A stretch of 64,000 nt of DNA from Actinomycetota bacterium (GCA_014360645.1 JACIXD010000001.1:237647-301646); one strand, 5' to 3'. Numbered from the stretch's first letter, positions 1 through 45,661 are shown. Numbers and translations: made by a program. Notes: a model not told the origin generated them from the sequence alone.

Positions 1-674
1 TCGAAGGCGATGGGGCCACCTTTTCGTTCCCAATCCACCCCCACCAGCAGCAACCTTATGGGACCGGGCCTGAGTGCCCGTACGGCATCGGCGTAGGGTG
101 GGTCTTCATCTATGTTCGCCCCGAAGGGGACCACGAAGACCCGCAAGGGGTCGGCCCCATAGTCCTCGATGGCAGAAGCAGCCGTCCAATGGGCTGGGAA
201 TATGCAGGCCGCGGCCCTGGAGATAGCCGCCCTCTCGATCCAGTGGCCCTGCCGCAGGGATGTCCGCATGAGGTCACGGTAGAAATCGTAATATTCGACC
301 ATGAGGGCGAAGGTGGCGTCGCTCTCATAAACCACGGGTATATCTGTCTCCAAAAGGGCTATCTCGGTTGAGGCCTCGGGCGCGAAGATTATATCATACT
401 CTCCAGCGGCCAGTTTCTTGTTGAAGGCCTGCGCGTATGACCTGGCGAGGCAGAGCGTATGAAGGTAGTCGTAGTTCCTGTGCAACAACCTCCTCGTAAA
501 GGCTCGGATTGCCTTGCCGGCATGCACGATAGGGGCGGAGACCGGCCCTAGATAATCCACCTCTCCCACGTTGTTCTCCAGCGCCTTACCCATATAGTGG
601 TAAACACCAGAGGAGTAGGTCTTGTCCCCTGGGTCACCCGCCGAGATGAACGCTATGCGTATTCTCTTCTCCAT
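1..674 (-). CDS. glycosyltransferase family 1 (GT4-like), partial; C-terminus lies outside the window
   Basis: Manual minus-strand translation from the ATG at 674 gives MEKRIRIAFISAGDPGDKTYSSGVYHYMGKALEN...LLLVGVDWERKGGPIAF, which resembles the N-terminal donor-binding domain of GT1 proteins. This ORF is not in the ORF track because it runs off the window edge. Confidence 0.6.
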   Translation of the reverse strand, partial: MEKRIRIAFISAGDPGDKTYSSGVYHYMGKALENNVGEVDYLGPVSAPIVHAGKAIRAFTRRLLHRNYDYLHTLCLARSYAQAFNKKLAAGEYDIIFAPEASTEIALLETDIPVVYESDATFALMVEYYDFYRDLMRTSLRQGHWIERAAISRAAACIFPAHWTAASAIEDYGADPLRVFVVPFGANIDEDPPYADAVRALRPGPIRLLLVGVDWERKGGPIAF

Positions 675-793
675 GGCGAATCCAGCCCCTCCTACCCGCC
701 GGCGAACTGCCTGGATCGCGCTTTCACGAGCACCTTAAGAGCAGGATCAATAAAGCGCGTCTCGAAAAGGCGCGCCAAGCCCCGAGCCCATCC

Positions 794-1876
794 CTATGCC
801 AGGAACTGGCGGTATATCTCGACATGCGCGGCCGCCGCCTTCTCCCAACCGAATTCCCTCGCTCTCCCGAGGCCGTCGCGGCGGACCTTTTCCCGCAACT
901 CGTGGTCCTCGAGCAAGGCGATCGCCTTATGGTAAATATCATCCACGTCGCGGGGGTCGCAATGCAACACCGAGCCGCCCGTCAACTCCAGGGACTGTGG
1001 TATGTCGGAGGCGACCACAGGACAGCCGCAGGCCATGGCCTCGATAACGTGGATGCCGCTCCCGCCCTCGTAAAGACTGGGCGCGAAGAGCAGCTCCGCA
1101 TTGGCGTAGAGTCGCGGCAGCTCGCTTTCCGGGACGTGGCCGCAAAAAACCACGCGGTCACGAAGATGCAGCCTCTCTATGGCGCGCAAGGAGCGCGCGC
1201 GGTCGGACCGTGATCCGGCAACTCCCACCTTGAGCAGGAAGATGTCGTGGTTACGGGAGATGCGCTTGAACGCCTCCAGGACGGAAGGGAAGTTCTTCCT
1301 CGGGATCTCCGAGCCCACGAAGAGCGCGTAACGGCTGTCTCCCCTCAGCCCGTAGCTCTCCAGGAAGGTCCGGTCCCGATATCCAGGCCTGTACAGCGCG
1401 TGATCCACGCCGCAATATACGACGCTCATCCTGTCCTCGGGATAACCGAGCTTTGATGCTATCTCGTTCAGCATATGCCTCGAGACAGTTATCACGTGGT
1501 CGGCGCGCAGGATACCGGGGACGTTGAAGGCCCGGAACGGATAGCTCTTGAGATCGGTGCGGCCCGCTTCCAGCGGGTGCAGATCGTGGAGGGTGAGCAG
1601 AACGGGCGCTTTTCTTCGCAGCAGGGGTACGAGGTGCGCGTTCGCATGGTCGTGGATGTGGAACAGACTACCGCTCAGTCCCGCTGCGTGTATGCTGTAC
1701 ATGAGATAGCGGTTGATGATCCCCTTCGGGAAAGGTATGGCGAGCCCCGCTATCTCGTCTATCGAGACATGTATGTCTGGAGCCAGGCCCGCCATCTCGC
1801 GGTGCAGGCACTCCACCCATTTGCTCATGCTTGGACCCCGCAGCCTGCGCACACCGTGGATCCATACCACATTCAT
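794..1876 (-). CDS. glycosyltransferase family 1
   Basis: 360 aa with GT1/GT4 C-terminal signature (EGGSGIHVIEAMACGCPVVASD). It overlaps the downstream gene by 4 bp. Confidence 0.8.
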   Translation of the reverse strand: MNVVWIHGVRRLRGPSMSKWVECLHREMAGLAPDIHVSIDEIAGLAIPFPKGIINRYLMYSIHAAGLSGSLFHIHDHANAHLVPLLRRKAPVLLTLHDLHPLEAGRTDLKSYPFRAFNVPGILRADHVITVSRHMLNEIASKLGYPEDRMSVVYCGVDHALYRPGYRDRTFLESYGLRGDSRYALFVGSEIPRKNFPSVLEAFKRISRNHDIFLLKVGVAGSRSDRARSLRAIERLHLRDRVVFCGHVPESELPRLYANAELLFAPSLYEGGSGIHVIEAMACGCPVVASDIPQSLELTGGSVLHCDPRDVDDIYHKAIALLEDHELREKVRRDGLGRAREFGWEKAAAAHVEIYRQFLA

Positions 1877-3696
1877 TGCTCACCTGCCTGACGAACCCCT
1901 CGCACCGCCGTGTCCAATTCCATCCGCACGAGGATAAGCCGGTATTCCTCCGACACCTTCTCGCGGGGCGCTGTGATATTGGAGAGCGCGACCCTCCAGT
2001 TCATGGCGCTCCAGGTATGATAGTTGCCGGCCGAGGTAAAATCGCAGGTTGGCGGGATATACTCAAGTCGTACGTCCATCTCGTGATCGATCTCCAAATT
2101 GTTCACGATCACCGTATCGTCGAATATCATCTCGCCCAATCTGTACTGGGAGCGGAAGGTCCTGGCGTTGGTAATAAGATAAAACGTCCCGGTAGTGCCG
2201 ATGTCCTTCAGGCTCACAGGTTTCCAAGGGGTTATCTCGATGATGTCAAGATCATAGGCGAAATAGAGCGGGGCTCCGAGGCCGTAACCACCAAGAGCAT
2301 AGCGGTCCACCAGGACTTTCTCCCCGCGCGAAGCCACCGACGCTATCTCCGCCACTCGCGAAGAAACCCCACGGTATTCCTGGTGGAGAAGCAGGGGATG
2401 GGAAACGCTAACCAGCAGCGCCAGGTACGCTGCCGTCACCCAAAAGGACGCCCCCTTGAGGATCTTGAACGCGGTATAGGAAAAGGCGATGAGAGCCAGG
2501 GGCAGAAGGACGGTCATGAAGCGCCGGAAAAACCAGGGTAGATCGAAAGAGATGCTCGGCCTGAGGAGAAAATAGGCGAAGGGGATAGCCATAAAAGCTA
2601 GGAAAAGCGCAAAAACACGTGTTGTCCCTTGGGACAGGAGAAGGAAGAAAAAGGGGATTATGAAGAGCAGGGCGGGCAGGAAGCCGAACTTTATCATCAC
2701 CATGATGCTGTACTTTGTCTGGTTGGAGTAGATGGCGTTCCTCTCTATATCGGAGACCCGTCCCGAGCCCAGGCCCACGCCGAGGCTGGTCTTTGTGACC
2801 CTCTCTATGCCGTAGGTCCTGTCCATCAAGGTATAAGCGAAAAAGAAAAACGAGACCAGGGCCAGGGTGACGAGGATGAGCACCACCGGCTTGATGGTCC
2901 AGCCATGCCAACGAGCCCGCGAATAGATAAAGAGCCATGCCAGTGTGCCCACCGCCAGAACCAGCAGCCCCTCGATGCGTATGAAGGCAGCCAGGGGGAG
3001 AGTGAGAAGAAAAAGGACGAGGTCGCTTTTGAAGGTGGCGCTCTCTTTGAGGCAACGATGCAGGAAATATAATGAGTTCCAGAAAAGGAAGAGAAAAAGC
3101 ACCTCATTTGCCGTGCGGCGCGCGTACCAGAGGAAGGGGTAGGAGAGAGAGATGAGGGCCACGGCGAATATGCCCGCCCGGGAATCCTCTGAGAGCTCCG
3201 TGGTCAGCAAGAACATCAGCAGGAGAGCGATGGCGAAGGGTATGGCGTTACAGAGCCGAAGGCCGCTGTACCCCATCGTTCCGTAGAGCAGGGCGTTCCA
3301 GGCCGTATTTAGAAAAAGCCTGATATCCCAACCGCGGTGGCCGGGAGGCGGCAAACGGCCGTGTCTTGCGAGGTATATCGCCTGGTTGGAGTAAATGCCC
3401 TCGTCGCGCGTACCGTTGAGGGCGTCATGAAAAAAAAAGACGTTCAGCAAGGTGACGGCGATGATAACAGCGAGGGCGGTGACGAGGATGGCGGCCTCTC
3501 TGCGAGAGCGGGGGCTTCGAGGGCAGAGCGTTCTTTTGCTCAAGAAGTGCCACGCCGGGATGGTGGCCAGTGTTCCGATGGCCAGCACCGCCCACGCGTT
3601 AAAGACTTTCAGGAGCGCGGCGGCCCAGGCCGTCCAAAGGAGGAGCAAGATATACAGCATGACAAAGCGCAGAAGATGACCCAGACGCATCAACAC
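1873..3696 (-). CDS. polytopic membrane glycosyltransferase, GT-C-like (ArnT/PMT/YfhO-type), with a C-terminal extracytoplasmic domain
   Basis: 607 aa with about 12-14 hydrophobic helices in the first ~430 aa followed by a soluble ~170-aa tail. It sits in a glycosyltransferase cluster alongside a GtrB-like GT2. Confidence 0.5.
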   Translation of the reverse strand: MLMRLGHLLRFVMLYILLLLWTAWAAALLKVFNAWAVLAIGTLATIPAWHFLSKRTLCPRSPRSRREAAILVTALAVIIAVTLLNVFFFHDALNGTRDEGIYSNQAIYLARHGRLPPPGHRGWDIRLFLNTAWNALLYGTMGYSGLRLCNAIPFAIALLLMFLLTTELSEDSRAGIFAVALISLSYPFLWYARRTANEVLFLFLFWNSLYFLHRCLKESATFKSDLVLFLLTLPLAAFIRIEGLLVLAVGTLAWLFIYSRARWHGWTIKPVVLILVTLALVSFFFFAYTLMDRTYGIERVTKTSLGVGLGSGRVSDIERNAIYSNQTKYSIMVMIKFGFLPALLFIIPFFFLLLSQGTTRVFALFLAFMAIPFAYFLLRPSISFDLPWFFRRFMTVLLPLALIAFSYTAFKILKGASFWVTAAYLALLVSVSHPLLLHQEYRGVSSRVAEIASVASRGEKVLVDRYALGGYGLGAPLYFAYDLDIIEITPWKPVSLKDIGTTGTFYLITNARTFRSQYRLGEMIFDDTVIVNNLEIDHEMDVRLEYIPPTCDFTSAGNYHTWSAMNWRVALSNITAPREKVSEEYRLILVRMELDTAVRGVRQAGEQ

Positions 3697-3701
3697 CCCC
3701 G

Positions 3702-5243
3702 CTATTCCAGTTTTATCTTGAGGGAGGTCAGCAGGATGTCCTCCTCGCCGATCTTCTCCAGGACGATCTTGACCTTCTCCCCTGGCAGGGGAACGCCTTT
3801 CATGTGGATGGTCCGTTTGCTGGTGAACGTTTCGCCGTCACGTGCAGGTGATTCATAATCCCTTGCGAGTACAGTGGAGAAAGGCTGGGCGGCGTTTTCG
3901 TTCCAGGGCTTAAGGCGCATGAAGCCGGGGTCGAAGGCCAGATCGGGATCAAAGGAGAATCCGCCTCCCAGAAACTCCACTTTGAGGCTTCCGGGGTTGG
4001 TGATATCCAGCCTCTTTCTTCCTTCCCCGAGGATAACCGCTCCCTTCTGCATGGGCGCGCCGGGCCCTCTGTTCTCGAAAAAGAGCAAGGGGGTGCCGTC
4101 GACCTGTATCGATCTGGGGACGATGGGATGCCACGTCTCAGCCGACAGCACGCCCGCCGGACCGTTCAGGAACAGAGTAGCCGAGGTGGTTGCCGGCACC
4201 GTGGGCTCGGGTCCGGTCTCCAGCGGGTCGAAGAGGAAGAGGGTGTTCCTGGCGAGGTATTTCACGGCATCGGTGCGTAAGGAGGTAAGGACGAAGTCGT
4301 CGCCCCAGGTAAGGGGCGAGATATCGAGCGTATACGAACCGCTCTCGCAGTCTTCCAGGTCTATCGATACGATCTGGTCCTCACCGGCCTCCATGGCATC
4401 ATCGGTGAGGTTTCCGTCGTCGGGGATCATGGCCTCATAATATGTCCTTCCCTTTCTCCTCAGGCGTATCAGCACGTCGTCGCCGCCCATATACCGGTTC
4501 AGATCTTTTTTGTGGACTTCCAAATGCAGCCTACCGGTGCTCACCACGAGCTCAATGGTATGTGCCCCCCGCAAAGGCATCCCGAGCGTTTCCACATTAC
4601 CGGTAGCATCAGGGCCGCATCCCCTTGCGAGAACCTCGTCGGGCCTGATCCCCGCCAGCGCGGCGTCTTCCTCCAGGTCCTCTGTCCGCGCCAGGAATTC
4701 GCCAATACTCGAAAAGCGCTTTGTTCGTTGATAGAGGCTCAGGCCGTCTTCGTGCATGACCTCCCAACCCCCCTTTTCTATCTCCGAGAGGAAGAGAGGA
4801 AGGGAATGATAGGGCTCGGCGAACCTGCTCCCTATGTGCATCCATAGCTGCTGCGGCGTTCCAAGGTATTCCGCCTCGATCTTGAGCGTTTCAGGCGTGA
4901 CGCCCTGAACGTCCAGGATAAGCTCCGTGTATCTCCTGGCCAGAGAAAGGCCGCTAACGACTTTACCGGTTTCGCCATCGAAGGAGACGACATCGACGTA
5001 CTCGGGCATAGACTTTGCTCCACCCGGGCTTTCATATTGATCGCCAAGACGGATCTCATAATTCACATTGAAATCCTTGCGGAACAGATAATCCCCAAGT
5101 ATGAAATATCCGGCGATCAATAAGATGATGGTAAGGGCGAGGACAAGCCTCCCCGTCTTGCTGAAAACGCGACGTTCCGTGAAAGCGTCCACAAGCCTCT
5201 TCAATCCCGGGTTTTTTATATTACCTGGTTGCCATATTATCAC
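3702..5243 (-). CDS. hypothetical membrane-anchored protein (N-terminal TM helix, large extracytoplasmic domain)
   Basis: 513 aa with a single N-terminal TM (LVLALTIILLIAGYFILG) and no motif I recognise. It is co-oriented with, and immediately upstream of, the GT-C gene. Confidence 0.55.
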   Translation of the reverse strand: MIIWQPGNIKNPGLKRLVDAFTERRVFSKTGRLVLALTIILLIAGYFILGDYLFRKDFNVNYEIRLGDQYESPGGAKSMPEYVDVVSFDGETGKVVSGLSLARRYTELILDVQGVTPETLKIEAEYLGTPQQLWMHIGSRFAEPYHSLPLFLSEIEKGGWEVMHEDGLSLYQRTKRFSSIGEFLARTEDLEEDAALAGIRPDEVLARGCGPDATGNVETLGMPLRGAHTIELVVSTGRLHLEVHKKDLNRYMGGDDVLIRLRRKGRTYYEAMIPDDGNLTDDAMEAGEDQIVSIDLEDCESGSYTLDISPLTWGDDFVLTSLRTDAVKYLARNTLFLFDPLETGPEPTVPATTSATLFLNGPAGVLSAETWHPIVPRSIQVDGTPLLFFENRGPGAPMQKGAVILGEGRKRLDITNPGSLKVEFLGGGFSFDPDLAFDPGFMRLKPWNENAAQPFSTVLARDYESPARDGETFTSKRTIHMKGVPLPGEKVKIVLEKIGEEDILLTSLKIKLE

Positions 5244-5462
5244 ATAGAAAGAAAGGCGGTGGGTGCGAGACGTCTCGGTGGTTGCTCTGCTCCGAGGAGT
5301 GCGTGCGCCAAAGCCCTCAGGACATAAAGCTCGGCGCGATGATGCCTGCGGCGCTGCAGTCGCGGCTCCGACGTCCTTTGGTGCCTGCGTCCCGGGCGAG
5401 GCCCTTATCTAGGGCCTGACCACAACCAATAATCTTTGAAAGCACCCCCGAGGGTTTAGAAT

Positions 5463-6575
5463 ATGAACATGGGATCGCTGGTGATGACCTCCTCATTTGA
5501 CGTGTTTCCTCCCCACACAGGGGGAGAGAGGCGCATCTATCAGATCGCCAGGGAGATGGCCGGTCGCGGGCGCGTCATTTTCGTCTACCCGAGGGAGAAA
5601 ACCGTTCCGGCTGAGGATATCCCGGGTATGGAGCTGGTTCCATACCGTATCAGGTGTCGATATCAGAAGCTGTTCAGTGTCGGGATGTTGCACAAGACGA
5701 TAAGGCTGTGCAGCAGGGAGAAGGCGGACCTGTTCTACGTGCATACTATCTGGGGGGGGCTGCAGGCGGTTTTGCTGCGGGCGTTGACCGGGGTCCCTTT
5801 TGTGCTGGACGAACAGAACGTGGAATACCTGAGGTTCCGCGACACGGGAAACCGCCTGTGGCCGATAATGAGAATATATGAAAAGGCGGTGACTGGATTT
5901 GCGGGGCTCGTGGTGTGCGTGTCCGAGAGGGACAAGGAGGCGTTTGTCGAACTGGGCGTCCCGAGGGAACGCCTGTATGTGGCGACAAACGGGGTTGACA
6001 CCTCCGTTTTCCGACCGGACGAGGATGCCCGAAGGAGGGTACGCGGTCAACTGGGCTTGGGAAACGACCCCCTGGTTCTCTTTTTTGGGGCCCTGGATTA
6101 TCCCCCCTCACTGGAAGCGCTTGCAGCGCTGAGGGATCATATCGTGCCCAGGGTAAGGGAAGCGGAACCAGGAGCGCGATTTATCGTGGCAGGGCGCAAC
6201 CCGCCGGCGAGAGCATTTTACGATGGAATGGAATTCGTGGGTTTCGTCGAAAGAATACAGGATTACATCAATGCAAGCGACGTGGTGGTGTGCCCCATAA
6301 CCAGCGGTGGCGGTACGAGGACAAAGATTCTGGAGGCAATCGCTTGCGGAAAAAGGGTGGTGAGTACCACCAAGGGAGCCGAGGGCCTTGAGCTCGATCT
6401 GGTAGGAGAAGGTGTTATCATGGCGGACGACTGGGACGATTTCTCCGATAAGGTGATAAATGCCGTCCGGATGACGGGAATCCCCGTCGATTTGCCGGAG
6501 CGCTTTTATGAGGAGTATTCCTGGAGGGGCATCGTCGAGGGGCTTTCGGCGGCCCTCGAAGGCGTCCGACCTTAG
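5463..6575 (+). CDS. glycosyltransferase family 1
   Basis: 370 aa with a GT4-type C-terminal domain (VCPITSGGGTRTKILEAIACGKRVVST). The start may instead be the ATG at 5484. Confidence 0.8.
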   Translation: MNMGSLVMTSSFDVFPPHTGGERRIYQIAREMAGRGRVIFVYPREKTVPAEDIPGMELVPYRIRCRYQKLFSVGMLHKTIRLCSREKADLFYVHTIWGGLQAVLLRALTGVPFVLDEQNVEYLRFRDTGNRLWPIMRIYEKAVTGFAGLVVCVSERDKEAFVELGVPRERLYVATNGVDTSVFRPDEDARRRVRGQLGLGNDPLVLFFGALDYPPSLEALAALRDHIVPRVREAEPGARFIVAGRNPPARAFYDGMEFVGFVERIQDYINASDVVVCPITSGGGTRTKILEAIACGKRVVSTTKGAEGLELDLVGEGVIMADDWDDFSDKVINAVRMTGIPVDLPERFYEEYSWRGIVEGLSAALEGVRP

Positions 6576-7468
6576 GCCCGACGGCAGGTCGATGCGGCCG
6601 CTTTCTCCCTCCACCAGTGCCAGACGAAACCCGTTAGTTGTGCGAGATACTGCAAAAGGAGAAGGGCCATGGACAGGAGGCCTCTTTTCGCGCCCTGTTG
6701 GCGGATGGCCCTCGATGAGGCCTTGAGCCTGTCTGATACCAGGTCGCGTGATATTCCGCGATAGGCGTGGTATTCATAATAGGATTTTCCTCTGCGGACG
6801 TGCCAGAGGATGAAATCCATGATCCTCTTTCTCGGTTCATGGAGGACGGTGGCATCCTCAACGTACAATATCTCATGGCCGCGTTTTATTAACCTGGATG
6901 CGAGCTCGACGTCCTCGCAGCCGTGGGAGAGCTTTTCGTCGAAGCAACCGAGTTCCAGGAGGAGGTTTCTGTCGATAGCGAAGTTCCCGGAGCAAAGGTG
7001 ATCGGTGATATCTCGCTCGTCTACATTCCACAGGCTCCGAAAACCGACTGACCCGCCGCCGGGATAGCCAAGGGACGATATGGCATCGGCCACCAGGCCC
7101 TGGCCTGTCGGCACCATGTTCCCTGACGTGGTGACCAAGACCTTTTTCTCGATTATGGGCTGGGTCAACTTCTCCAGCCATTGATCGTCAAGGGGGAGTT
7201 CATCATCGTCTATGAATGCGACGACCTGTCCTCTGGCAAGGCTCACGCCTTTATTGCGGTAATAAGGGATGCCCTTGGCTGGTGTTTCCCGAATCACCCT
7301 GATGATGTCGCTTTCGGGCAGCCTACTGGATATATCGGCCTGGGGGACAAGTATGATTTCAAAAGGATAATCCGATCGTTGTCGCAGAAGGGCCTCGACG
7401 AGGGGGTAGAGGCTTTCACGTCCCATGGTAGGGATGATCACGGAGATCGCGATATCACTCGGTCTCAA
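6572..7468 (-). CDS. glycosyltransferase family 2
   Basis: 298 aa with a GT2 N-terminus (ISVIIPTMGRESL...VAFIDDDELP, DxD). It is convergent with, and overlaps by 4 bp, the preceding GT1. Confidence 0.75.
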   Translation of the reverse strand: MRPSDIAISVIIPTMGRESLYPLVEALLRQRSDYPFEIILVPQADISSRLPESDIIRVIRETPAKGIPYYRNKGVSLARGQVVAFIDDDELPLDDQWLEKLTQPIIEKKVLVTTSGNMVPTGQGLVADAISSLGYPGGGSVGFRSLWNVDERDITDHLCSGNFAIDRNLLLELGCFDEKLSHGCEDVELASRLIKRGHEILYVEDATVLHEPRKRIMDFILWHVRRGKSYYEYHAYRGISRDLVSDRLKASSRAIRQQGAKRGLLSMALLLLQYLAQLTGFVWHWWREKAAASTCRRA

Positions 7469-8128
7469 GAGCTCGCTGCCTTCTGTTATACGTGATGTCG
7501 GCGCCGCAAAAAAGACGGCGCCACCCCTTCTGGGCGCCGCGTGATCCCTGCAAGCCTAAGTACTTGAAGTCATCAAAACTTTCGTTGCCTGAGCCTGTCC
7601 TTCCGCAGAATTCGGGGCGCATGACGTCCTTAGACTGCACGCCATATTCACAGCCGAAAACCCCATTCCCTCTGTGCCCTCCATGCATCCTCGGCGGTTG
7701 CCTCAGCATTCTCCATCCAGGACGAAACATCTTCGCGTAGAAACCATCCAGATTAGTGAGCATGGTAAGATGTTAGAGCTTATGCGATTCGGAGTAAAGC
7801 TGGTATCTGAGCAGCAAAAGTAATGCGCAGGCGAGGACCGCCATTAGCGAGGCTGCGTAGCCCTGGCGACATGTTAGAATGTATACACCGGAGATTGTGT
7901 TGGTTGGCGTATGATGCCGGCGGCTGTCGGCAGCAAGACGATGCGTGATGACCTGCTTGATGGAACGGCGGGCCGCGAAAAGGTGAAGGGGGTTGCAGCG
8001 GTCTTTATGATCAGGCAACAAACCTCAGGGTATAGCGTCTGGCTTCCAGATGGCATCATCCTGATCTGCCGGAAATCTGCATATTCCTCGCGAGGGATCG
8101 GAAGCGATAAAAACGGGAGTAGTCTAGC

Positions 8129-8992
8129 GTGTTGAGAGTGTCGCTGGTGCTGCCTGTCTTTAATGAAGAGAAGGCCATAGGCGAAGATCTTGAAGAAGCA
8201 GTCGCGACTCTAAGCTCCACCGACTGGGAATGGGAGATCATCGTGGTGGACGACGGCTCCACCGACGGCACGGCGGAGATAGCGGCCTCCTTCCCCGAGG
8301 TGCGCCTCATCCGCCATCCCTACAACATGGGGGGAGGGGCCGCGCGTTCCACGGGCATCAGGCACGCCAGGGGCGAGGTGGTGGTCATCTCCGACGGGGA
8401 CGGCACCTACCCCATGCGGGACATCCCACGGCTGGTGGAGGCCCTGGACGACTGCGAGATGGTGGTGGGGGCGAGGACGAAGGAGGCGGGGACCCTCAAG
8501 TTCCTGCGCGTCCCGGCCAAGTTCCTCATCCGCAAGCTGGCCGAGTTCATAAGCGGCGCCAGGATACCGGACCTCAACTCGGGTATGAGGGCCATGCGCA
8601 GGGAGACGGCGCTTCCCTACCTGCACATGCTCCCCAACGGGCATTCCTGGGTGAGCACCATCACCCTGGCCTTCCTCACCAACAGCCATCCTGTGAAGTA
8701 CGTGCCCATCGACTACTACCCGCGCAAGGGTAAGTCCACCTTTCACCCCGTAAGAGATACCGGCAATTACCTCATGACCATCTTCCGCACCATCACCTGG
8801 TTCAGCCCCTTGAAGATCTTCCTGCCCCTGGCCATGCTCCTCCTGCTCACCGGGACTGGCAAGCTCATCGCGGACGTGGTGCGCTACAGCTGGCGGGTCA
8901 CCCCCAGCACGGTGATCCTGGTGCTGGGCGGCCTGCAGATCCTGGTCCTGGGGCTCATCGCGGACATGATCGCCAAGAGGAGTTCTCCGTGA
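8129..8992 (+). CDS. polyprenol-phosphate sugar transferase, GT2 (DPM1/GtrB/CsbB-like)
   Basis: 287 aa with a GTG start. Has a GT2 catalytic domain (VSLVLPVFNEE...IIVVDDGSTDGT...VVISDGDGTY) plus C-terminal TM helices typical of GtrB/ArnC-type enzymes. Confidence 0.75.
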   Translation: MLRVSLVLPVFNEEKAIGEDLEEAVATLSSTDWEWEIIVVDDGSTDGTAEIAASFPEVRLIRHPYNMGGGAARSTGIRHARGEVVVISDGDGTYPMRDIPRLVEALDDCEMVVGARTKEAGTLKFLRVPAKFLIRKLAEFISGARIPDLNSGMRAMRRETALPYLHMLPNGHSWVSTITLAFLTNSHPVKYVPIDYYPRKGKSTFHPVRDTGNYLMTIFRTITWFSPLKIFLPLAMLLLLTGTGKLIADVVRYSWRVTPSTVILVLGGLQILVLGLIADMIAKRSSP

Positions 8993-9957
8993 CGCCCAGA
9001 GTGCTCATCACCGGGGCGGACGGGTTCGTGGGCAGGCACCTGGCGGCCTATCTGGTGCAGGAGGCCGGCGCCGGGGTGCTGGGCCTGGACATGCGTCCGC
9101 CGCGGGAGGGCGGGCCGTGGAAGGCCTGTGCCTTCGAGGTGTGCGACATCCTGGACGGAAGGGCCCTGTTCGAGCTGGTCAAGGGCTTCCGCCCCCATTA
9201 CGTCTTTCACCTCGCGGCCCAGAGCTCGGTGCGCCGTTCCTGGGAGGACCCCGAGCTCACCTTCCGCATCGCCCTGCACGGGCAGGCGAACCTCATCGAG
9301 GCCCTGCGCGTGGCGGGGGTGGAGGCGAGGGTGCATGTCGCATGTTCGTCGGAGGAATATGGAAAGGTGAGCGAGGACGAGCTCCCCATAAGGGAGACCC
9401 ACCCCCTCCGGCCCTCCAGCCCCTATGCCCTGAGCAAGGTGATGCAGGAGTACCACGCCGTCTTCTGCCACCAGGCCTACGGCATGGAGACGGTCATCAC
9501 CCGCGCCTTCAACATGATCGGGCCCGGGCAGTCGGCGGAGTTCGTGGCCTCCGACTTCGCGCGCCAGATAGCGGAGGCGGAGGCGGGCATGCGGGAGCCG
9601 GTGATCCGGGTGGGCAACCTGGAGGCGAGGCGGGATTTCTCCGACGTGCGCGACCTGGTGGGGGCGTACTGGGAGCTGCTCCGGAAGGGGGTCCCAGGAG
9701 AGGCGTACAATGTCTGCTCGGGGGAGGACCACCCCGTATCGGAGCTGCTGGACACCTTGCTATCCCTGAGCGGGACGCCTATAGAGGTGGTGGTGGACCC
9801 GCAGAAATACCGCGTGGCGGACATCCCGGTGCTCAGGGGGGATAACGCCAGGATGCGGGAGGTCACGGGGTGGAGGCCCCGGCTCAGCCTGGAGCAGACC
9901 CTCTCGGACGTGCTGGACTGGTGGAGGGCGGAGGTCGGCGGGAGGCAAAGGAGGTAG
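8989..9957 (+). CDS. NAD-dependent epimerase/dehydratase, GDP-4-keto-6-deoxy-D-mannose reductase-like (Rmd-like)
   Basis: 322 aa extended SDR (ITGADGFVG, SSEEYG, YxxxK in PYALSK, AFNMIGPGQ), paralogous to the gmd gene at 11441 and flanking manC. The start overlaps the upstream stop. Confidence 0.55.
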   Translation: MTPRVLITGADGFVGRHLAAYLVQEAGAGVLGLDMRPPREGGPWKACAFEVCDILDGRALFELVKGFRPHYVFHLAAQSSVRRSWEDPELTFRIALHGQANLIEALRVAGVEARVHVACSSEEYGKVSEDELPIRETHPLRPSSPYALSKVMQEYHAVFCHQAYGMETVITRAFNMIGPGQSAEFVASDFARQIAEAEAGMREPVIRVGNLEARRDFSDVRDLVGAYWELLRKGVPGEAYNVCSGEDHPVSELLDTLLSLSGTPIEVVVDPQKYRVADIPVLRGDNARMREVTGWRPRLSLEQTLSDVLDWWRAEVGGRQRR

Positions 9958-9961
9958 ATAC

Positions 9962-11083
9962 ATGCAGGCGGTTATCCTGGTAGGCGGGCAGGGGACCAGA
10001 CTGCGTCCCCTCACCCTCACGGTGCCCAAACCCGTGCTCCCCCTCATGAACCGGCCCTTCCTGGAGTTCCAGATCGAGCTCTGCAGGCGTTACGGCGTCA
10101 CCGACATCATCCTCTCCACCGCCTATAAGCCCGAGGTCTTCGCCTCCTGTTTCGGCGACGGCAGTGCGCTGGGGGTGAAGCTCACCTACGTCACCGAGGA
10201 GGAGCCCCTGGACACCTGCGGGGCGGTGAAGAACGTGGAGCGCTACATCGAGGGCACCTTCCTGGTCTTCAACGGCGACGTGCTGAGCGACCTCGACCTC
10301 GACAACCTCATCGCCTATCACCGCGAGAAGGGGGGACAGGCCACCCTGTACCTCACGCGCGTGGAGGACCCCACCGCCTACGGACTGGTCCCCCTGGACC
10401 GCAGGGGCCGGATCAAGGAGTTCCTGGAGAAGCCGAGCTGGGACCAGGTGGTGACCGACCTCATCAACGCGGGGACCTACGTGCTTGAGCCTGAGCTGCT
10501 GGACCGCGTGCCGGCGGGCGAGCGCTACTCCTTCGAGCGCCAGCTCTTCCCCGGCCTCCTCGAGGACGGCATCCCCATGTACGGCTTTCCCAGCGACGCC
10601 TACTGGCTGGACATCGGCACCCCTGCGAAATACCTGCAGGCCCATTACGACATCCTGCGGCGCGCCTATCCCTTCGAGTTCCGGGGAAAGATGGTAAGGC
10701 CCTCGGTGTGGGTGGAGGGGGAGGCGGACATCTCCCCCGAGGCCTCGGTCTTCGGCCCCACGGTCATCGGCGAGGGATGCAGGATAGCGCCCCACGCCAC
10801 GGTGTCCAGCAACTGCGTCCTCGGGCCCGACTGCGTGGTGGAGGAGGGGGCATATCTCGAGGGCGCGGTGCTGCACGCGGGCTGCAGGGTGGGAGCCGAC
10901 AGCGTCCTGCGCCAGTGCGCTCTCTCGGCGGGGGTGGAGATAGGGGAGCGGGTGCACGTGTGCGACCAGGCGGTGGTCGGGGGCGGGATAAAGGTGGGAG
11001 AGGACAACGAGCTCCGATACGGCATAAGGGTTTGGCCAGGCCACGACATCCCCCCCTCCACGCTGCGCTTCCTCACCAACTGA
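9962..11083 (+). CDS. manC: mannose-1-phosphate guanylyltransferase-like sugar-1-P nucleotidyltransferase
   Basis: 373 aa with an N-terminal nucleotidyltransferase motif (AVILVGGQGTRLRPLT) and a C-terminal left-handed beta-helix hexapeptide region. Confidence 0.65.
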   Translation: MQAVILVGGQGTRLRPLTLTVPKPVLPLMNRPFLEFQIELCRRYGVTDIILSTAYKPEVFASCFGDGSALGVKLTYVTEEEPLDTCGAVKNVERYIEGTFLVFNGDVLSDLDLDNLIAYHREKGGQATLYLTRVEDPTAYGLVPLDRRGRIKEFLEKPSWDQVVTDLINAGTYVLEPELLDRVPAGERYSFERQLFPGLLEDGIPMYGFPSDAYWLDIGTPAKYLQAHYDILRRAYPFEFRGKMVRPSVWVEGEADISPEASVFGPTVIGEGCRIAPHATVSSNCVLGPDCVVEEGAYLEGAVLHAGCRVGADSVLRQCALSAGVEIGERVHVCDQAVVGGGIKVGEDNELRYGIRVWPGHDIPPSTLRFLTN

Positions 11084-11440
11084 GAGAGGCTGAAACATCG
11101 AGGGCGAGGGGACGCGAGCCCCGGGTCCGGCGCGCGGAACGGGCGGCTGAGGGCCGGGAACACGGCGGAGGCATGAGCGAGGTCCTCCGCGAGAGGGCTC
11201 GCGCCCTCTGGCTCGTGGGGGCCTGCCGGAGCCCCGGCTCGACCACCCCGCGCGGGTTCATCGGCATGCGGACGGGCGCCGGCGAGGGCGGGGCCGCAAG
11301 CCCGCCGCGTGGCGGGTCGGAAGCCGGTATGGAAAACCGCTCTGCATACAGGCATAATGGACGGATGACGGCGGCCCGCTCCTTGGACGGGGCGGCTGAT
11401 ACGCCGGAGAGGGAACCGTGGTCGGAGCAAGGAGGAGACG

Positions 11441-12394
11441 TTGAGGATACTCATCACGGGGATAACCGGGTTCGTAGGGAGCCACCTTGCGGAATACGCC
11501 CTCACCAAAGAAGGGGTGGAGGTCTTCGGCACCGTGCGCTGGCGGTCGCGCATGGACAACGTGGAGGGCATCCTGGACCGCATCCACATCATCGACTGCG
11601 ACCTGCGGGACAACGTGGCGGTGAAGAGGACGCTGGAGGAGGTCCGCCCCGATTACATCTTCCACTTGGCGGCCCAGAGCTTCGTGCCCACCTCCTGGAA
11701 GGCTCCCGCCGAGACCCTCACCACCAACATCATCTCCCAGCTCAACCTGCTGGAGTCCATCCGCGACCTGGGGCTGGAGACGCGCATCCAGGTGGCGGGA
11801 TCGAGCGAGGAGTACGGCCTGGTCTTCGAGCACGAGACGCCCATAAGCGAGGAGAACCCCCTGCGCCCCCTGTCCCCCTACGCGGTGAGCAAGGTGGCCC
11901 AGGACATGCTGGCCTACCAGTACCACCGCAGCTACGGCATCTACGCCGTGCGCACCCGAGCCTTCAACCACGAGGGGCCGCGCCGCGGGCACGTCTTCGT
12001 CACCAGCAACTTCGCCAAGCAGATCGCGGAGATCGAGAAGGGCAAGAAGGAGCCGGTCATCGAGGTGGGAAACCTCAACGCCCGCCGGGATTTCACCGAC
12101 GTGAGGGACATGGTCAAGGCCTACTGGCTATCCCTGGAGAAGGGCGAGGCGGGGGAGGTGTACAACATCGGGTCCGGGCGCGCGGTGACCATCCGCGAGA
12201 TGCTGGACATGCTGCTCTCCTACTCCCACCTGGATATCGAGATCAGGCCGGTTCCCGAGCGCATGCGCCCCTCCGATGTGGAGCTCTTGATCTGCGACTG
12301 CAGCAAGTTCAAGGCCATCACGGGGTGGAGCCCGGAGATACCCCTGGAAAAGACCCTGAAGGACACCCTGGATTACTGGCGTGAGCGCGTATGA
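11441..12394 (+). CDS. gmd: GDP-mannose 4,6-dehydratase
   Basis: 317 aa with a TTG start 4 nt after an AAGGAGGAG RBS. Carries the GMD hallmark [10 protein letters not shown], plus [15 protein letters not shown] and PYAVSK. Confidence 0.7.
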
Positions 12395-12446
12395 GGGGCG
12401 CGGGAAAGCGCCGGGCGCAGGACGTGCGGAGAACGCGGAGGTAAGC

Positions 12447-13703
12447 ATGGACTACGACGTGAAGGACCTTTCCCTGGCCCGCGAGGGAAAGCTGAGGATA
12501 GAGTGGGCGGAGCGGGACATGCCCGTGCTGCGCATGATCCGGGAGCGTTTCGAAAAGGACAGGCCCCTCAAAGGGGTGAGGGTGGGCGCCTGCCTCCACG
12601 TCACCACGGAGACCGCCAACCTTATGATCACCCTCAAGGCGGGGGGCGCGAAGGTGGCGCTGTGCGCCTCCAATCCCCTCTCCACCCAGGACGACGTGGC
12701 GGCCTCCCTGGTAAAACATCACAGGATCCCCGTCTTCGCGGTGAGGGGGGAGGACAAGAAGACCTATTATTCCCACATCAACGCCGTGCTGGACACCCAG
12801 CCGCAGGTGACCATGGACGACGGGGCGGACCTCATCTCCACCCTGCACTCGGAGCGCAGGGAGCAGGCGGAGAAGGTGTGGGCGGGGGCGGAGGAGACCA
12901 CCACCGGGGTCATCCGCCTCAAGGCCATGGCCGAGAGGGGGGTGCTCCTCTATCCGGTGATCGCGGTGAACAACGCCATGACCAAGCACCTCTTCGACAA
13001 CCGCTTCGGCACCGGGCAGTCCACCCTGGACGGGGTGCTGCGGGCCACCAACATCCTGCTGGCAGGCCGGCGGGTGGTGGTTTTCGGCTACGGCATGTGC
13101 GGACGCGGCGTGGCCTCGCGGGCACGCGGCCTGGGCGCCAACGTGACGGTGGTGGAGACGGACCCCCTGCGCGCCCTGGAGGCGGTGATGGAGGGCTTCG
13201 AGGTATCGGGCAGCGCGGCGGCGGCCGAGAAGGGAGACCTCTTCATCACCGTCACCGGCGACATCCACGTGCTGCGCGCCGAGCACTTCCGGCGCATGAA
13301 GGACGGCGCGGTGCTCTGCAACTCCGGGCATTTCAACGTGGAGATAGACATCCCCGCCCTGGAGAAGATGTCCCGCGGCAGGCGCCGTGTGCGCGAGAAC
13401 GTGGAGGAGTTCCTGCTCCGGGACGGGCGCCGCATCTACCTCCTCGCCGACGGGAGGCTGGTGAACCTGGCGGCGGCGGAGGGGCATCCCGCCTCGGTGA
13501 TGGACATGTCCTTCGCCAACCAAGCCCTGGTGGTGGAATACGTCAGGGAGAGCCACCCTTACCTGGAGAGGGTGGTCTACGACGTCCCCGAGGAGCTGGA
13601 CCGCGAGATCGCCCGCCTCAAGCTGGCCTCCATGGGCATAGAGATCGATTCCCTCACCCGCGAGCAGGAGAAATACCTCTCCTCCTGGGAGATGGGCACC
13701 TGA
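12447..13703 (+). CDS. ahcY: adenosylhomocysteinase
   Basis: Classic AhcY N-terminus [28 protein letters not shown] after a GGAGG RBS. The ORF-track start at 12381 is an in-frame upstream extension. Confidence 0.85.
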
Positions 13704-13925
13704 AGACCCGCGCGCAATAGCACTATGCGTGCGGGCAGTCGCTCGCCTTGTTATGTTCACGCCATGCCCGCCGAGGGATGGCGGCCCACGTCGCTCGACG
13801 GCCTTGATCTTGAGAGACGGGGTAGTTCACCGCGATCTTCCTGGATGAGGTCGCCCGTGTTTGCAGGGAAACCCCATCCGCATGGCCACGTCTGAGAGAT
13901 TGCGCAATATAACCGCGATCATGTT

Positions 13926-13958
13926 AATATAATCATTAAGTTGTTTGATGATTATATT
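13926..13958. promoter_or_regulatory. 11-bp perfect inverted repeat (AATATAATCAT-N11-ATGATTATATT), operator-like, upstream of the fic gene
   Basis: A perfect palindrome with no G/C (so not a terminator), lying 36-68 bp upstream of the fic ATG in the AT-rich leader. Confidence 0.35.
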
Positions 13959-13993
13959 TAATTGCATCCGGAAAGCGGGATTCCATTTTCAAG

Positions 13994-15079
13994 ATGACGG
14001 ACAAAATGGCTTCACGGAGGGGAGCGGGAGGAATGAGATCCTTTGAGGAAGGATTCATCTCAGGACAAGCTATAACCCAGGGACTCATCATGACCATCAG
14101 GACTATCGGAGAGTACAAGGGAAGGCATGCTCTGTACAAGTCGCAGGCTCCCCAGTTGCTGGAGACATTGCGGACGACTGCGATCGTCAACAGTGCCGAG
14201 GCATCAAACAGGATCGAGGGGATAACCGCACCCCTTAAGAGGATAGAGGAATTGGTGATAAGAAGGGATGAGCCCCGTAATCGATCGGAGCAGGAGATAG
14301 CGGGTTACAGGGATGCGCTGAGCACCATTCATGCAAACTGGCCAGACATGGATTTTAGCGCCGGCCTGGTTCTGCAGCTACATCGTGACCTGTTCAAGTA
14401 TGTTCCCGGGCAGGGGGGCAGATGGAAGCAGGTCGATGACGAGATAGCGGAGACTCTGCCTACCGGGGAGAAGATAGTGAGGTTCAAGCCTGTTCCAGCT
14501 CATCTAACGGGTGAGGCCATGGTGCGGTTGCATGAGCGATTCAATAGTGCATGGGAGGCAGGCGAGGTAGAGCCTTTGCTCATCATCCCGGCTTACATCC
14601 TGGATTTCCTGTGCATCCGTCCCTTTCTTGACGGTAACGGCAGGATGGCCAGGCTCATAACCCTGCTACTTCTATATAAGGCGGGCTATGAGGTTGGCAG
14701 GTATATCAGCCTCGAGAAGGTGATAGATGAAAACCGCGAGGGCTATTATGATGCTCTGCGAGGCTCGGATCGGGGATGGCACGAAGGAAACCACTCCCTC
14801 CTTCCCTGGTGGGAGTTTTTCCTGGGAGTCATGCTAATAGGAGCCTATAGGGAATTAGAACGGCGCGTAGGCGTGGTTTCCACTAAACGCGGCCATAAAC
14901 GAGAGATGATCCAGGATACCATTCGGCGATTGCCGGCGGAGTTCAGGGTATCCGATATCGAGAGAATATGTCCGGGAATAAGCAGGCCCACCATCAACAG
15001 GGTTCTTGCAATGCTCCGAGACAGAGGCGAGATCCGCTGCGTCAAGGCGGGTAGAGACGCGATATGGCGCAAGCTCTAG
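13994..15079 (+). CDS. Fic family protein (class II-like with N-terminal SxxxEG inhibitory motif and C-terminal wHTH); Fic motif has Arg in place of the catalytic His
   Basis: 361 aa. The Fic core is RPFLDGNGRMAR (canonical HPFx[DE]GNGRxxR; codon cgt at the His position). N-terminal SNRIEG matches the (S/T)xxxE(G/N) inhibitory helix, and the C-terminal ~60 aa look like a winged HTH. The gene sits in a lower-GC region. Confidence 0.7.
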   Translation: MTDKMASRRGAGGMRSFEEGFISGQAITQGLIMTIRTIGEYKGRHALYKSQAPQLLETLRTTAIVNSAEASNRIEGITAPLKRIEELVIRRDEPRNRSEQEIAGYRDALSTIHANWPDMDFSAGLVLQLHRDLFKYVPGQGGRWKQVDDEIAETLPTGEKIVRFKPVPAHLTGEAMVRLHERFNSAWEAGEVEPLLIIPAYILDFLCIRPFLDGNGRMARLITLLLLYKAGYEVGRYISLEKVIDENREGYYDALRGSDRGWHEGNHSLLPWWEFFLGVMLIGAYRELERRVGVVSTKRGHKREMIQDTIRRLPAEFRVSDIERICPGISRPTINRVLAMLRDRGEIRCVKAGRDAIWRKL

Positions 15080-15289
15080 AGATCACCCGCTGGCCTTGCG
15101 GTGGTGACGAAACCTTTGCCGGATTGGGGGTGGCCGCGGCCCGCATTCTCAAGATTAGGTATCGGCCATGAAAACATTGCCGGGAAGGGGAACGCTGAAG
15201 AAATTTCGATCCAGTCGCAGGCGGATGAGACGGCCGAGAAGGAGCAAACGATCGACAGCGCAACTCATAGATCGAGGCGGAGGTGAAAA

Positions 15290-16318
15290 GTGAACGTCGA
15301 GAAGGGCGGGGATTTCAAGGCGGTGGACTGGCGTGACGGCAGGGTGGTCCTGCTCGACCAGACGCGGCTTCCCGCGGAGGAGGTCTATATGGAGATCTCC
15401 GATTGGCGGGAGGTGGCCGAGGCCATAAGGAAGATGCGCGTGAGGGGAGCTCCCGCCATCGGGATAGCCGCCGCCTACGGCATCGCCCTGGCGGCCCTGG
15501 CGCCCGGCGCGAGGCGGGAGGTGGAGGCGGCGTGCCGGGAGCTGGCCACGGCGAGGCCCACGGCGGTGAACCTGGCGTGGGCGGTGGAGCGCATGCGCCG
15601 GGTGGCGGTGGACGCGCCCGCGGAGGGGCTTGCGGCCGCCCTCCTCTCCGAGGCGCACGAGATCGCGGCGGAGCAGGACGCCGCCGACCGGGCCATAGGC
15701 GAATTCGGGGCGGAGCTGCTCCCCGGGGGATGCCGCGTCCTCACCCACTGCAACGCGGGTGGGCTCGCCACCTATTCCTACGGCACCGCCCTGGGAGTGA
15801 TCAAGACCGCCTTCCGCCAGGGAAAGATCGCCCACGTGTGGGTGGACGAGACGCGGCCCCTCCTGCAGGGTGCTCGTCTCACCGCCTGGGAGCTCATGCG
15901 CGAGGGCATCCCCATGTCCCTCGTCTGTGACAACATGGCCGGGCACCTCATGTCCAGGGGGGAGGTGGACGCGGTGGTCACCGGGGCCGACCGGGTGGCG
16001 GCAAACGGAGACAGCGCGAACAAGATCGGCACCTACGCCCTGGCGGTGCTGGCGGAAAAGCACGGCCTGCCCTTCTATATCGCGGCGCCGCTCTCCACCC
16101 TGGACCCCGCCGCCGCCGACGGCGGGTCCATCCCTATCGAGGAGAGGGAGGAGGCGGAGGTCACCATCCTCGCCGGGACGGCCATCGCCCCCGCGGGGGT
16201 ACGAGCCCGTAACTTCGCCTTCGACGTCACCCCGGCCGAGCTCATCACCGCCATCATCACCGAGAGGGGCGTGGCCAGGCCTCCCTACGGCAGGTCCCTG
16301 CGCGAGCTCCTGGACTGA
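15290..16318 (+). CDS. mtnA: S-methyl-5-thioribose-1-phosphate isomerase (eIF-2B alpha/beta/delta family)
   Basis: 342 aa with a GTG start after GGAGGTG. MtnA-like throughout ([14 protein letters not shown]...[10 protein letters not shown]...ANKIGTY). Confidence 0.75.
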
Positions 16319-16511
16319 AATCACCCCCCTCCTCTGCGATTGCGGCGCCCGCATGCCGCCTGGCCTGTGGGATTCCGGCGCACCTCCCGGAGGGAGCCGC
16401 GCCGGATGCCTGGGTTCGCATCAAGGCGGGGCATATCCGGCCGTGACCACGGCATGGGGAGAGGCGCCGTATCATGCCCCGCGTTGCGCGCCGGCTCCGC
16501 TTGGCGTAACT

Positions 16512-16517
16512 TATAAT
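16512..16517 (+). promoter_or_regulatory. TATAAT -10 hexamer upstream of the second nucleotidyltransferase gene
   Basis: cttataatgcg lies about 35 nt upstream of the ATG at 16552. Confidence 0.3.
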
Positions 16518-16551
16518 GCGACCGTTGCGGCGCGAGAAAGGCTTGAAGGCG

Positions 16552-17670: not shown

Positions 17671-17734
17671 TGGGGTCAGCCCCGGACATGGGACATTTTG
17701 TATGTGCGGGGGTATGCGCGGGCGTATGCGTGCC

Positions 17735-20125: not shown

Positions 20126-20554
20126 GGAACCGGAAGGCTTCGGCCCGGGTCTGTGGTTGAAAGTCGATGCCAGCCGCAGGCGAAACGACCCACGTAAGCC
20201 AACTCTTGGTTGGTGAGCATGGTGCGGCTTAGGGGTAAGTCCTGCCCGGCACAAAGCCGGAGAAGCGTAGTAGTGGAGGGCCAGGGTTCTTTCCGGAGAA
20301 GAGCCCGCCCTCTGCGAGCCGTTCAGCAGGCGAGTGTGGGGGCAAAGACCAGGTCAGCCGGGTTCCGAGGCCTTCCTCGTGCCCGCATGCATGTTGGCAT
20401 CGGACCGATGGTATGCTAGGCTATTGCGAGTCGATGCACGGAAGCCGGGTCGCGGTCCGGGTGTGGACCGGCCCCATGAACAGGTCTCGATGATGGCCCA
20501 TACCGACACCAGCCTGGTATGGGTTTTTTCGCTGAGAGGAAGGGAGCGAGGAAC

Positions 20555-21094: not shown

Positions 21095-21196
21095 TATGCG
21101 CAAGCTCCTGGACATGGCGCGCCAGGTGCTGGATTACGTCATCAGGCGGGGCGCCACCATGCGCCCTTGAGAGACGGGACGGGTGAGGTCGCTCTC

Positions 21197-43228: not shown

Positions 43229-43250
43229 GGGAACGCCGGGAGGACCTTCC

Positions 43251-45650: not shown

Positions 45651-45661
45651 AAGGATCCTGC

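Follow-up and report, generated by a model that had tools for sequence, protein, structure and literature searches.

A strain-variable surface-glycan locus of an uncultured Geothermincolia-like actinobacterium, with a predicted GDP-D-rhamnose branch and a divergent GT-C-fold glycosyltransferase beside an orphan membrane partner

The stretch of DNA analyzed here (the window; 64,000 nucleotides (nt) of Actinomycetota bacterium GCA_014360645.1, JACIXD010000001.1:237647-301646, 65% G+C) begins with what its gene content identifies as a cell-surface glycan-biosynthesis locus, at positions 1-12394. Genes were mapped from an open reading frame (ORF) listing, codon-position G+C and Pfam and NCBIfam family searches; the public entries identical to the window proteins are MBC7228965-MBC7228974, with locus tags of the H5T74_ series. 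The closest named relatives are Candidatus Solincola, of the class Geothermincolia, and the metagenome-assembled genome is that of a Geothermincolia-like member of the Actinomycetota, an uncultured, thermophilic, deep-branching and monoderm actinobacterium. Clusters of this kind are fairly ordinary; what sets this one apart is a divergent membrane glycosyltransferase of the GT-C fold together with a partner that resembles sugar-binding proteins. A first-pass annotation, made from the sequence alone, had recognized a surface-glycan locus whose named elements are indeed present at or near where it placed them. Its extension of the locus to position 13703 does not hold, as 12381-13703 (plus strand) encodes adenosylhomocysteinase (ahcY, 633 bits), and on the left the locus continues beyond the window edge.

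A minus-strand operon runs from position 5243 down to 1. It starts with the orphan partner, a protein of 513 amino acids that we call P513 (3702-5243), an ORF absent from the first-pass annotation, followed after 5-11 nt by the gene of the divergent GT-C-fold membrane glycosyltransferase (1873-3696, 607 amino acids), assigned by AlphaFold and Foldseek. The stop codon of the latter overlaps by 4 nt the start of a GT4-family glycosyltransferase gene (GT4a, 794-1876; GT-B fold, retaining type; Pfam Glycos_transf_1, 102 bits). The last gene, cut by the window edge, encodes the N-terminal 223 amino acids of another GT4-family enzyme (3-671; Pfam Glyco_transf_4, 34.5 bits), which is complete at 385 amino acids. 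Contig L031, an 8.3-kb Logan contig 100% identical to window 1-4832, extends 3.46 kb beyond the left edge (L031 4833-8293); it completes the 385-amino-acid GT4 and adds a GT2 (318 amino acids, weak TPR match), a further GT4 (390 amino acids) and the C-terminal part of a flippase of Wzx type (Polysacc_synt_3). Divergent from the P513/GT-C operon, a third GT4-family gene of the window lies on the plus strand (5463-6575; Glyco_transf_4, 73.8 bits; Glyco_trans_1_4, 71.9 bits), next to a minus-strand GT2-family gene of soluble type (6572-7468; Glycos_transf_2, 55.8 bits). The three glycosyltransferases of the window listed at first pass as GT1 (3-671, 794-1876 and 5463-6575) therefore exist, but their Pfam domains (Glycos_transf_1/Glyco_transf_4) assign them to CAZy family GT4 and not GT1.

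The 660 nt between this part and the next operon (7468-8129) hold no convincing gene. The plus-strand operon starts with a GT2 of the polyprenyl-phosphate sugar synthase type (8129-8992; Glycos_transf_2, 111.6 bits; hereafter the 8129 GT2), which overlaps by 4 nt the gene of a predicted Rmd-like short-chain dehydrogenase/reductase (SDR-A, 8989-9957), itself separated by 4 nt from the gene of a ManC-like nucleotidyltransferase (9962-11083). A GC-rich spacer of 358 nt (11084-11440) precedes the gene of a second reductase-like protein, SDR-B (11441-12394, plus strand), predicted from its motifs to be a short GDP-sugar 4,6-dehydratase. The gene order is thus GT2, SDR-A, ManC, spacer, SDR-B, and not the manC-gmd pair with a flanking paralog described in the first-pass annotation. 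A spacer of similar length occurs in the related contig L001 (728-1052), and only two parts of it are conserved between the two loci, namely a promoter-like block (TGGAAA-17-CATAAT, 11330-11358, plus strand) and the ribosome-binding region. An S-adenosylhomocysteine or other riboswitch in this spacer was considered and rejected, as no Rfam match was obtained at E<=1 and the conserved part is promoter-like.

The GT-C protein (605-607 amino acids) has about 13 transmembrane (TM) helices followed by a C-terminal alpha/beta ectodomain in the AlphaFold2 model (pLDDT 83.7, pTM 0.86). When this model was compared with the PDB by Foldseek, every one of the top 16 matches was a GT-C enzyme (TM-score 0.33-0.54, probability 1.00), with ALG12, PglB (E 1.3e-5), ALG9, ArnT, STT3, AftA, EmbB, DPY19, AftD and Pmt4 among the proteins matched. 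Pfam gave no match to the 607-amino-acid protein, not even to PMT_2 (PF13231) at E<=1, and the sole curated model touching it was NCBIfam NF047440 (LA_3751/LA_3752), with 35.9 bits over residues 129-454 and a cutoff of 200. A family profile searched against 1.84 billion representatives recovered 1,433 clusters at E<=1e-10, only about 7 of them above 500 bits, and three of ten more distant relatives found with this profile passed the PMT_2 threshold of 26.1 bits (29.6-35.5 bits). As only such distant relatives pass it, the PMT_2 link of the window protein is transitive only. YfhO (PF09586) matched neither the window protein nor any of the 12 family members, and the sequence could not be related to any Gtr family.

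In the alignment of 12 homologues, Asp98 is invariant in every one, within a motif RDE(G/A)xY of the first outer loop (RDEGIYSN in the window protein), and the outer loop at 384-393 is likewise invariant (FDLPWFxRRF). Residue 98 is predicted to lie outside the membrane because the preceding loop, 54-64, is rich in Arg and Lys. The modeled fold and the transitive homology together indicate that the 607-amino-acid protein is a GT-C enzyme, from a divergent branch of the ArnT/PMT_2-like group. The first-pass annotation had called a GT-C-type transferase of about 13 TM helices here and had named a lack of family matches as evidence against it; fold and profile data support the call, and a direct Pfam match is indeed lacking. 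The public gene model, MBC7228966.1, has 467 amino acids. Its start lies 140 codons late, so that the conserved helices of the N-terminus are lost and, with them, the loop of the invariant Asp98, both kept in the homologues; the model given here corrects this truncation (467 versus about 605 amino acids), which loses the predicted catalytic loop.

P513 (496-513 amino acids) is bitopic: a TM helix lies at its N-terminus, and its ectodomain is all-beta and similar to carbohydrate-binding modules (CBMs). Pfam and NCBIfam searches returned nothing usable, and a word-index search with the P513 alignment gave fewer matches than one with a single sequence, and none that was new. With the whole model, Foldseek reached TM-scores below 0.2 only, to multidomain CBM-bearing enzymes and to BcsB, so that the likeness is evidence at the domain level only.

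For the 8129 GT2, the closest solved relatives are ArnC (65 bits), the DPMS of P. furiosus (52 bits) and GtrB (5ekp, 44 bits), the last aligned over the full length. It also matches the NCBIfam model AglJ over its full length (119 bits), as well as the dolichyl-P-hexose transferase, ArnC, PpgS and PgfS models, all of these below their cutoffs. Two C-terminal hydrophobic helices are present at 222-240 and 263-281. These matches indicate the ArnC/DPM1/GtrB architecture, a GT-A domain with two C-terminal TM helices, of polyprenyl-phosphate sugar synthases, and they agree with the DPM1/GtrB/CsbB-like call made at first pass; the separate GT2 listed there is present as well (6572-7468). A GDP-sugar donor is suggested by the 4-nt overlap of its gene with SDR-A. 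As for the three-component transfer system of the first-pass annotation, the GtrB-type GT2 and a GT-C-fold protein are both there; the GtrA component is not, so that the locus does not qualify as a classical Gtr system. Neither window 1-17670 nor its extension on L031 contains an ORF for a small flippase of the GtrA type, with 4 TM helices (PF04138), and small ORFs at 7455-8021, considered as GtrA-like candidates, have no TM segment and no family match.

The pairing of P513 with the GT-C was found in every close relative examined (L001/L008, L004/L007, L009, L027, L028/L029 and L031). In L001, L027, L028/L029 and the identical contigs L005/L031, the gene that directly follows the GT-C is an orthologue of GT4a. 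The L004 gene in this position is closest to the 385-amino-acid GT4 of the window, not to GT4a, and L009 has its GT4a homologue elsewhere in the locus, about 4 kb upstream of the GT-C and on the opposite strand. The operon comprising the GT2, SDR-A and ManC genes is within 10 kb of the P513/GT-C pair in L001 and L009. Also, in the distant locus L015, whose GT-C is 27% identical to that of the window, a DPM1-like GT2 (315 amino acids), the GT-C (666 amino acids) and a P513-like protein (506 amino acids; hhalign probability 98.7%, E 4e-16) are adjacent. Next to these three genes is an operon for a canonical GMD, an Rmd-like SDR of the GPGQ type, UDP-glucose dehydrogenase, metK and a sulfotransferase. 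In 6 more distant loci, a DPM1-like GT2 is encoded no more than 10 kb from a GT-C homologue. The reappearance of the trio in L015 speaks most strongly for joint action of the GT2, the GT-C and P513 and for their connection with GDP-6-deoxyhexose synthesis.

SDR-A and SDR-B are paralogs (48% identical) that both match PF16363 and bear one and the same name in the public annotation. With the curated Gmd model TIGR01472, whose cutoff is 415 bits, SDR-A scores 139 and SDR-B 190 bits; for Rmd, no curated hidden Markov model exists (bioRxiv 10.1101/854612). The closest solved relative of both is the Rmd of Aneurinibacillus thermoaerophilus (2pk3), at 255 bits for SDR-A and 313 bits (48% identity) for SDR-B. 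SDR-A, whose best matches in the PDB are two bona fide Rmds, is 41% identical to this enzyme and 37% identical to the Rmd of Pseudomonas aeruginosa (6x3b, 194 bits), both alignments being full length, and it scores at most 117 bits with GalE-type UDP-Glc epimerases. It groups with 2pk3 and 6x3b and not with UDP-sugar epimerases; clustering with the latter is what the first-pass annotation had named as evidence against its proposal of an Rmd-like product. For SDR-B the second-best solved relative is the GDP-heptose 4,6-dehydratase of C. jejuni (7us5; 245 bits, 44% identity).

Motifs separate the two paralogs further. SDR-A carries AFNMIGPGQ, and the pattern FN(H/M/Q)xGPGQ is common to both characterized Rmds, to SDR-A and its orthologues in L001 and L009, and to the Rmd-like protein of L015. 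The pattern FNHE(S/G)P(R/L)RG, or its variant THSGPRRS, is found in the GMDs of E. coli and P. aeruginosa, in 7us5, in the canonical GMD of L015 and in SDR-B, which combines [ST]SE..YxxxK, NHEGPRRG and an RW..MDN loop, a set of features matching these two GMDs and 7us5. This loop is an RR-loop-like insertion (RWRSRMDN in SDR-B, RWQEPMDN in 7us5) and is absent from the Rmds. The catalytic signature of GMD is [ST]SE..YxxxK (PMC8987622, Table 1). It does not discriminate here, because it occurs in SDR-A and SDR-B and also in the Rmd of A. thermoaerophilus. Thus, SDR-A is best taken for a predicted, Rmd-like GDP-4-keto-6-deoxy-D-mannose reductase; SDR-B would be a short GDP-sugar 4,6-dehydratase of non-canonical type, with predicted Gmd function. 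The first-pass assignment of the 11441 product to Gmd is in keeping with its dehydratase-type motifs, but the protein scores below TIGR01472, is placed in the Rmd-like clade by a neighbor-joining tree and is not a canonical Gmd. Between the two, the product of 9962-11083 is probably a mannose-1-phosphate guanylyltransferase of the long GMPPB/Rv3264c type, with 394 bits to NF052502, 128 bits to the HddC model and 172-204 bits to GMPPB-type PDB entries, among which plant and human GMPPB score 172-182 bits.

The two halves of the locus differ in their conservation. Compared with L001, proteins of the sugar-nucleotide operon are 82-97% identical, versus only 45-56% for P513, GT-C and GT4, and G+C at third codon positions (GC3) is 0.63-0.78 in 1-8000 versus about 0.9 in 8129-13703. 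Relatives also vary in their genes for export and accessory functions. This genome and L004 have a Wzx-type flippase, L001 has Wzm/Wzt together with two methyltransferases, a DegT aminotransferase and an acetyltransferase resembling PglD, and L027 has a Methyltransf_21 gene. From these sequence comparisons, the locus appears to be a hypervariable, strain-variable surface-glycan locus beside a conserved precursor operon.

We consider it fairly probable that this is a strain-variable envelope glycan locus combining a cytoplasmic branch with an extracytoplasmic, lipid-linked branch. From the gene content, the domain and fold assignments, the motifs and the gene neighborhood, we infer its substrates, product sugar and acceptor, and a complex of the GT-C with its partner. 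In the cytoplasm, ManC would make GDP-mannose, SDR-B, to judge by its motifs, would convert it to GDP-4-keto-6-deoxy-D-mannose, and SDR-A, given its likeness to the two characterized Rmds, would reduce this intermediate to GDP-D-rhamnose. The GT4 and GT2 enzymes would then build a lipid-linked oligo- or polysaccharide from GDP-sugars and other donors, for export by the Wzx-like flippase encoded just outside the window, where a relative would use a Wzm/Wzt ABC transporter. In the other branch, the 8129 GT2, translationally coupled to the GDP-sugar genes, would charge polyprenyl phosphate with a sugar taken from a GDP donor, in all likelihood mannose or D-rhamnose. Once the lipid-linked sugar has been flipped, the PMT_2/ArnT-like GT-C may move it to the glycan or to another acceptor at the outer face of the membrane. 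P513, through its CBM-like beta-sandwich, would probably hold or present the glycan acceptor in trans, a role proposed by analogy with Emb and AftD, in which CBM-type domains are inside the same polypeptide.

A more specific proposal, which we regard as doubtful, is that P513, the GT-C and a GtrB-type GT2 coupled to GDP-sugar supply, with a GT4 directly downstream of the GT-C in most close relatives, form a previously undescribed extracytoplasmic module shared by Geothermincolia-type Actinomycetota and distant uncultured lineages. P513 would be its acceptor-binding carbohydrate module acting in trans, and polyprenyl-phospho-D-rhamnose its donor. To our knowledge, a lipid donor of this type has not been described so far.

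Several observations weigh against the two-branch scheme. On the deoxysugar side, SDR-B fails the curated Gmd model and, in a small neighbor-joining tree with five solved references, lies inside the Rmd-like clade and not with the canonical GMDs, so that its assignment as a dehydratase is motif-based. As the Rmd of A. thermoaerophilus has the SSE motif too, the distinction between dehydratase and reductase rests mainly on the NHEGPRRG-type motif and the RR-loop. The score of the ManC-like protein with NF052502 is just under the cutoff of 440, and the reductase might instead yield GDP-6-deoxy-D-talose, or GDP-heptose might be the substrate of the pair, given the rank of 7us5 for SDR-B. On the membrane side, the fold of the GT-C also resembles those of PglB and STT3, which transfer whole oligosaccharides, the P513 model is of only moderate confidence (pLDDT 72, pTM 0.58) with a generic beta-sandwich fold, and no GtrA-like flippase for a polyprenyl-phosphate sugar was found. 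Within the window, we also saw neither a priming phosphoglycosyltransferase nor a Wzy or a ligase.

The resemblance to PglB and STT3 leads to an alternative in which the GT-C is an oligosaccharyltransferase, ligase or polymerase (PglB/AglB-like) that moves a polyprenyl-diphosphate-linked glycan, exported by Wzx or an ABC transporter, as a block to protein or cell wall, with P513 as acceptor or adaptor and the 8129 GT2 serving another step. The Foldseek matches to PglB and human STT3 would fit such an enzyme, as would a Wzx-like flippase adjoining a locus where no Wzy/WaaL-type gene is seen, weak Wzy_C matches in three of 12 GT-C family members (best E 0.002), and the retention of the GT-C/P513 pair in relatives under either Wzx or Wzm/Wzt. 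We nevertheless judge it unlikely, since ALG12, ALG9, ArnT and Pmt, which use monosaccharide-phosphate lipid donors, match the GT-C equally well or better, its sequence-level links are to PMT_2 and not to STT3, the invariant columns contain no WWDxG-type STT3 motif, and a GT2 of the DPM1/GtrB type recurs beside GT-C homologues in close and distant lineages alike. The same link to PMT_2 could be taken to indicate protein O-mannosylation of the Ppm1/Pmt type, which is known in Actinomycetota. The 8129 GT2, which is DPM-synthase-like and encoded near manC, would make polyprenyl-phosphate mannose from the GDP-mannose of ManC, and the GT-C would mannosylate secreted proteins, possibly P513 or a TIG/BNR protein of 1292 amino acids that carries a signal peptide, with the rhamnose genes and GT4s building a separate polymer. 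Yet the GT-C gene is not a conserved stand-alone gene; it sits in a variable GT4/GT2 polysaccharide cassette, to which it is translationally coupled. It has neither a MIR domain nor a match to the PMT family PF02366, the candidate glycoprotein is encoded 37 kb away among housekeeping genes, and an Rmd-like gene stands between the 8129 GT2 and manC in one operon. O-mannosylation therefore seems to us quite unlikely.

The nature of the sugar is a separate matter. A heptose or talose in place of GDP-D-rhamnose is suggested by the second-best relative of SDR-B being a GDP-heptose 4,6-dehydratase with which it shares the RW..MDN loop, and by the stereochemistry of C4 reduction, which cannot be read from sequence. 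Against this, SDR-A has two Rmds as its best matches, the nucleotidyltransferase encoded next to it scores far better as the long GMPPB/Rv3264c type than as HddC, and the heptose genes GmhA, HddA and GmhB are absent from the whole window. The type of nucleotidyltransferase and the absence of heptose-phosphate genes favor GDP-mannose and D-rhamnose over a 6-deoxyheptose, and we hold the heptose or talose product to be very unlikely.

Two known gene clusters resemble the cytoplasmic part of the locus. The common polysaccharide antigen (CPA) locus of P. aeruginosa (rmd-gmd-wbpW-wzm-wzt-wbpXYZ) and the S-layer glycan cluster of A. thermoaerophilus likewise group a ManC-type enzyme with a GMD/RMD pair and several GT4s, and the relative L001 is like the CPA locus also in having Wzm/Wzt and methyltransferases. 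Here, in contrast, the dehydratase is a short Rmd-like paralog that fails the Gmd model, the transporter is a Wzx-like flippase instead of an ABC transporter, the GtrB-type GT2, the GT-C and the orphan partner are additional, and the host is uncultured and Geothermincolia-like. For the lipid-linked part, the pairs or systems GtrA/GtrB/GtrC, CsbB/GtcA/YfhO, GacI/GacL, ArnC/ArnT, Ppm1/Pmt and PgfS/PgfM all have a GT2 with a GT-A domain and two C-terminal TM helices near a multi-TM GT-C with an acidic first outer loop. The present locus differs from them in that it has no small flippase of the GtrA/GtcA type, its GT-C lacks a direct Pfam family and is of neither the YfhO nor the GtrC type, the third component is P513, and the GT2 is in an operon with GDP-sugar genes. 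Mycobacterial EmbA/B/C and AftD, also actinobacterial, share the GT-C fold (Foldseek 7bvf and 6w98) and combine it with CBM-like beta-sandwich domains that supposedly bind the glycan as it grows. Unlike in those enzymes, the CBM-like domains are here on a separate, bitopic protein without sequence similarity to them, and a phosphate lipid of a hexose or 6-deoxyhexose, in place of decaprenyl-phosphate arabinose, would presumably be the donor. The Leptospira family of NF047440, a putative glycosyltransferase that the 607-amino-acid protein matches weakly, is itself uncharacterized.

These data do not overturn the current understanding of surface-glycan biology and constitute an incremental addition to it, with two modestly novel details, the short Rmd-like dehydratase and the GT-C with an orphan CBM-like partner. 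If correct, the rarely documented GDP-D-rhamnose route would extend to an uncultured, deep-branching, thermophilic class of actinobacteria. The locus also points to a type of GDP-sugar 4,6-dehydratase, short and Rmd-like, that is overlooked by curated models. Our analysis also flags a GT-C family of about 600 amino acids without direct Pfam coverage, whose actinobacterial branch is always paired with an orphan CBM-like membrane protein. The P513/GT-C pair makes a testable candidate for the recruitment of acceptors in trans by GT-C enzymes.

Past ahcY, a low-GC Fic gene is followed by mtnA and by the gene of another GMPPB-like nucleotidyltransferase. The latter (16516-17670, plus strand) encodes an LbH domain, scores 233 bits with the mycobacterial ManC-type model and is 37% identical to the first nucleotidyltransferase. 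The Fic-domain gene (13994-15079, plus strand) has a GC3 of 0.63, between ahcY and mtnA with about 0.9, and looks like a recent insertion. Genes of the S-adenosylmethionine (SAM) cycle thus stand beside the GDP-sugar genes: ahcY overlaps the stop of SDR-B, and mtnA (15290-16318) is near. In the distant locus L015, metK (16951-18111) is part of the GMD/Rmd operon, and the glycan loci of L001 and L027 contain methyltransferases. Judged from gene context, the SAM-cycle neighbors and the methyltransferases of relatives hint at an O-methylated sugar.

The remaining genes of the window are housekeeping genes (hpf with a raiA RNA, secA, prfB, ftsEX, tmRNA, tig, clpPX, valS and mreBCD). Among them, between clpX and valS, is the large secreted protein placed at 50420 by the first-pass annotation and connected there with the glycan, possibly as an S-layer. 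We found nothing in the sequence to sustain this connection, the ORF (50387-54265, plus strand) being 37 kb away with no glycosylation genes nearby. Its product of 1292 amino acids has an RR-type signal peptide and BNR/sortilin-like, TIG, MG2-like and DUF5719 regions. The tmRNA gene (34190-34535, minus strand) specifies the tag peptide ADSELALAA, and tRNA genes for Gly, Pro, His, Arg and Leu lie within 41890-46040. A full-length raiA motif RNA (20140-20368, plus strand; 177.6 bits, gathering score 101.3) stands just upstream of hpf (S30AE, 20519-21094), and downstream of hpf are two consecutive HD_5 (HD-GYP-type) proteins of 546 and 453 amino acids (21167-24165, plus strand).

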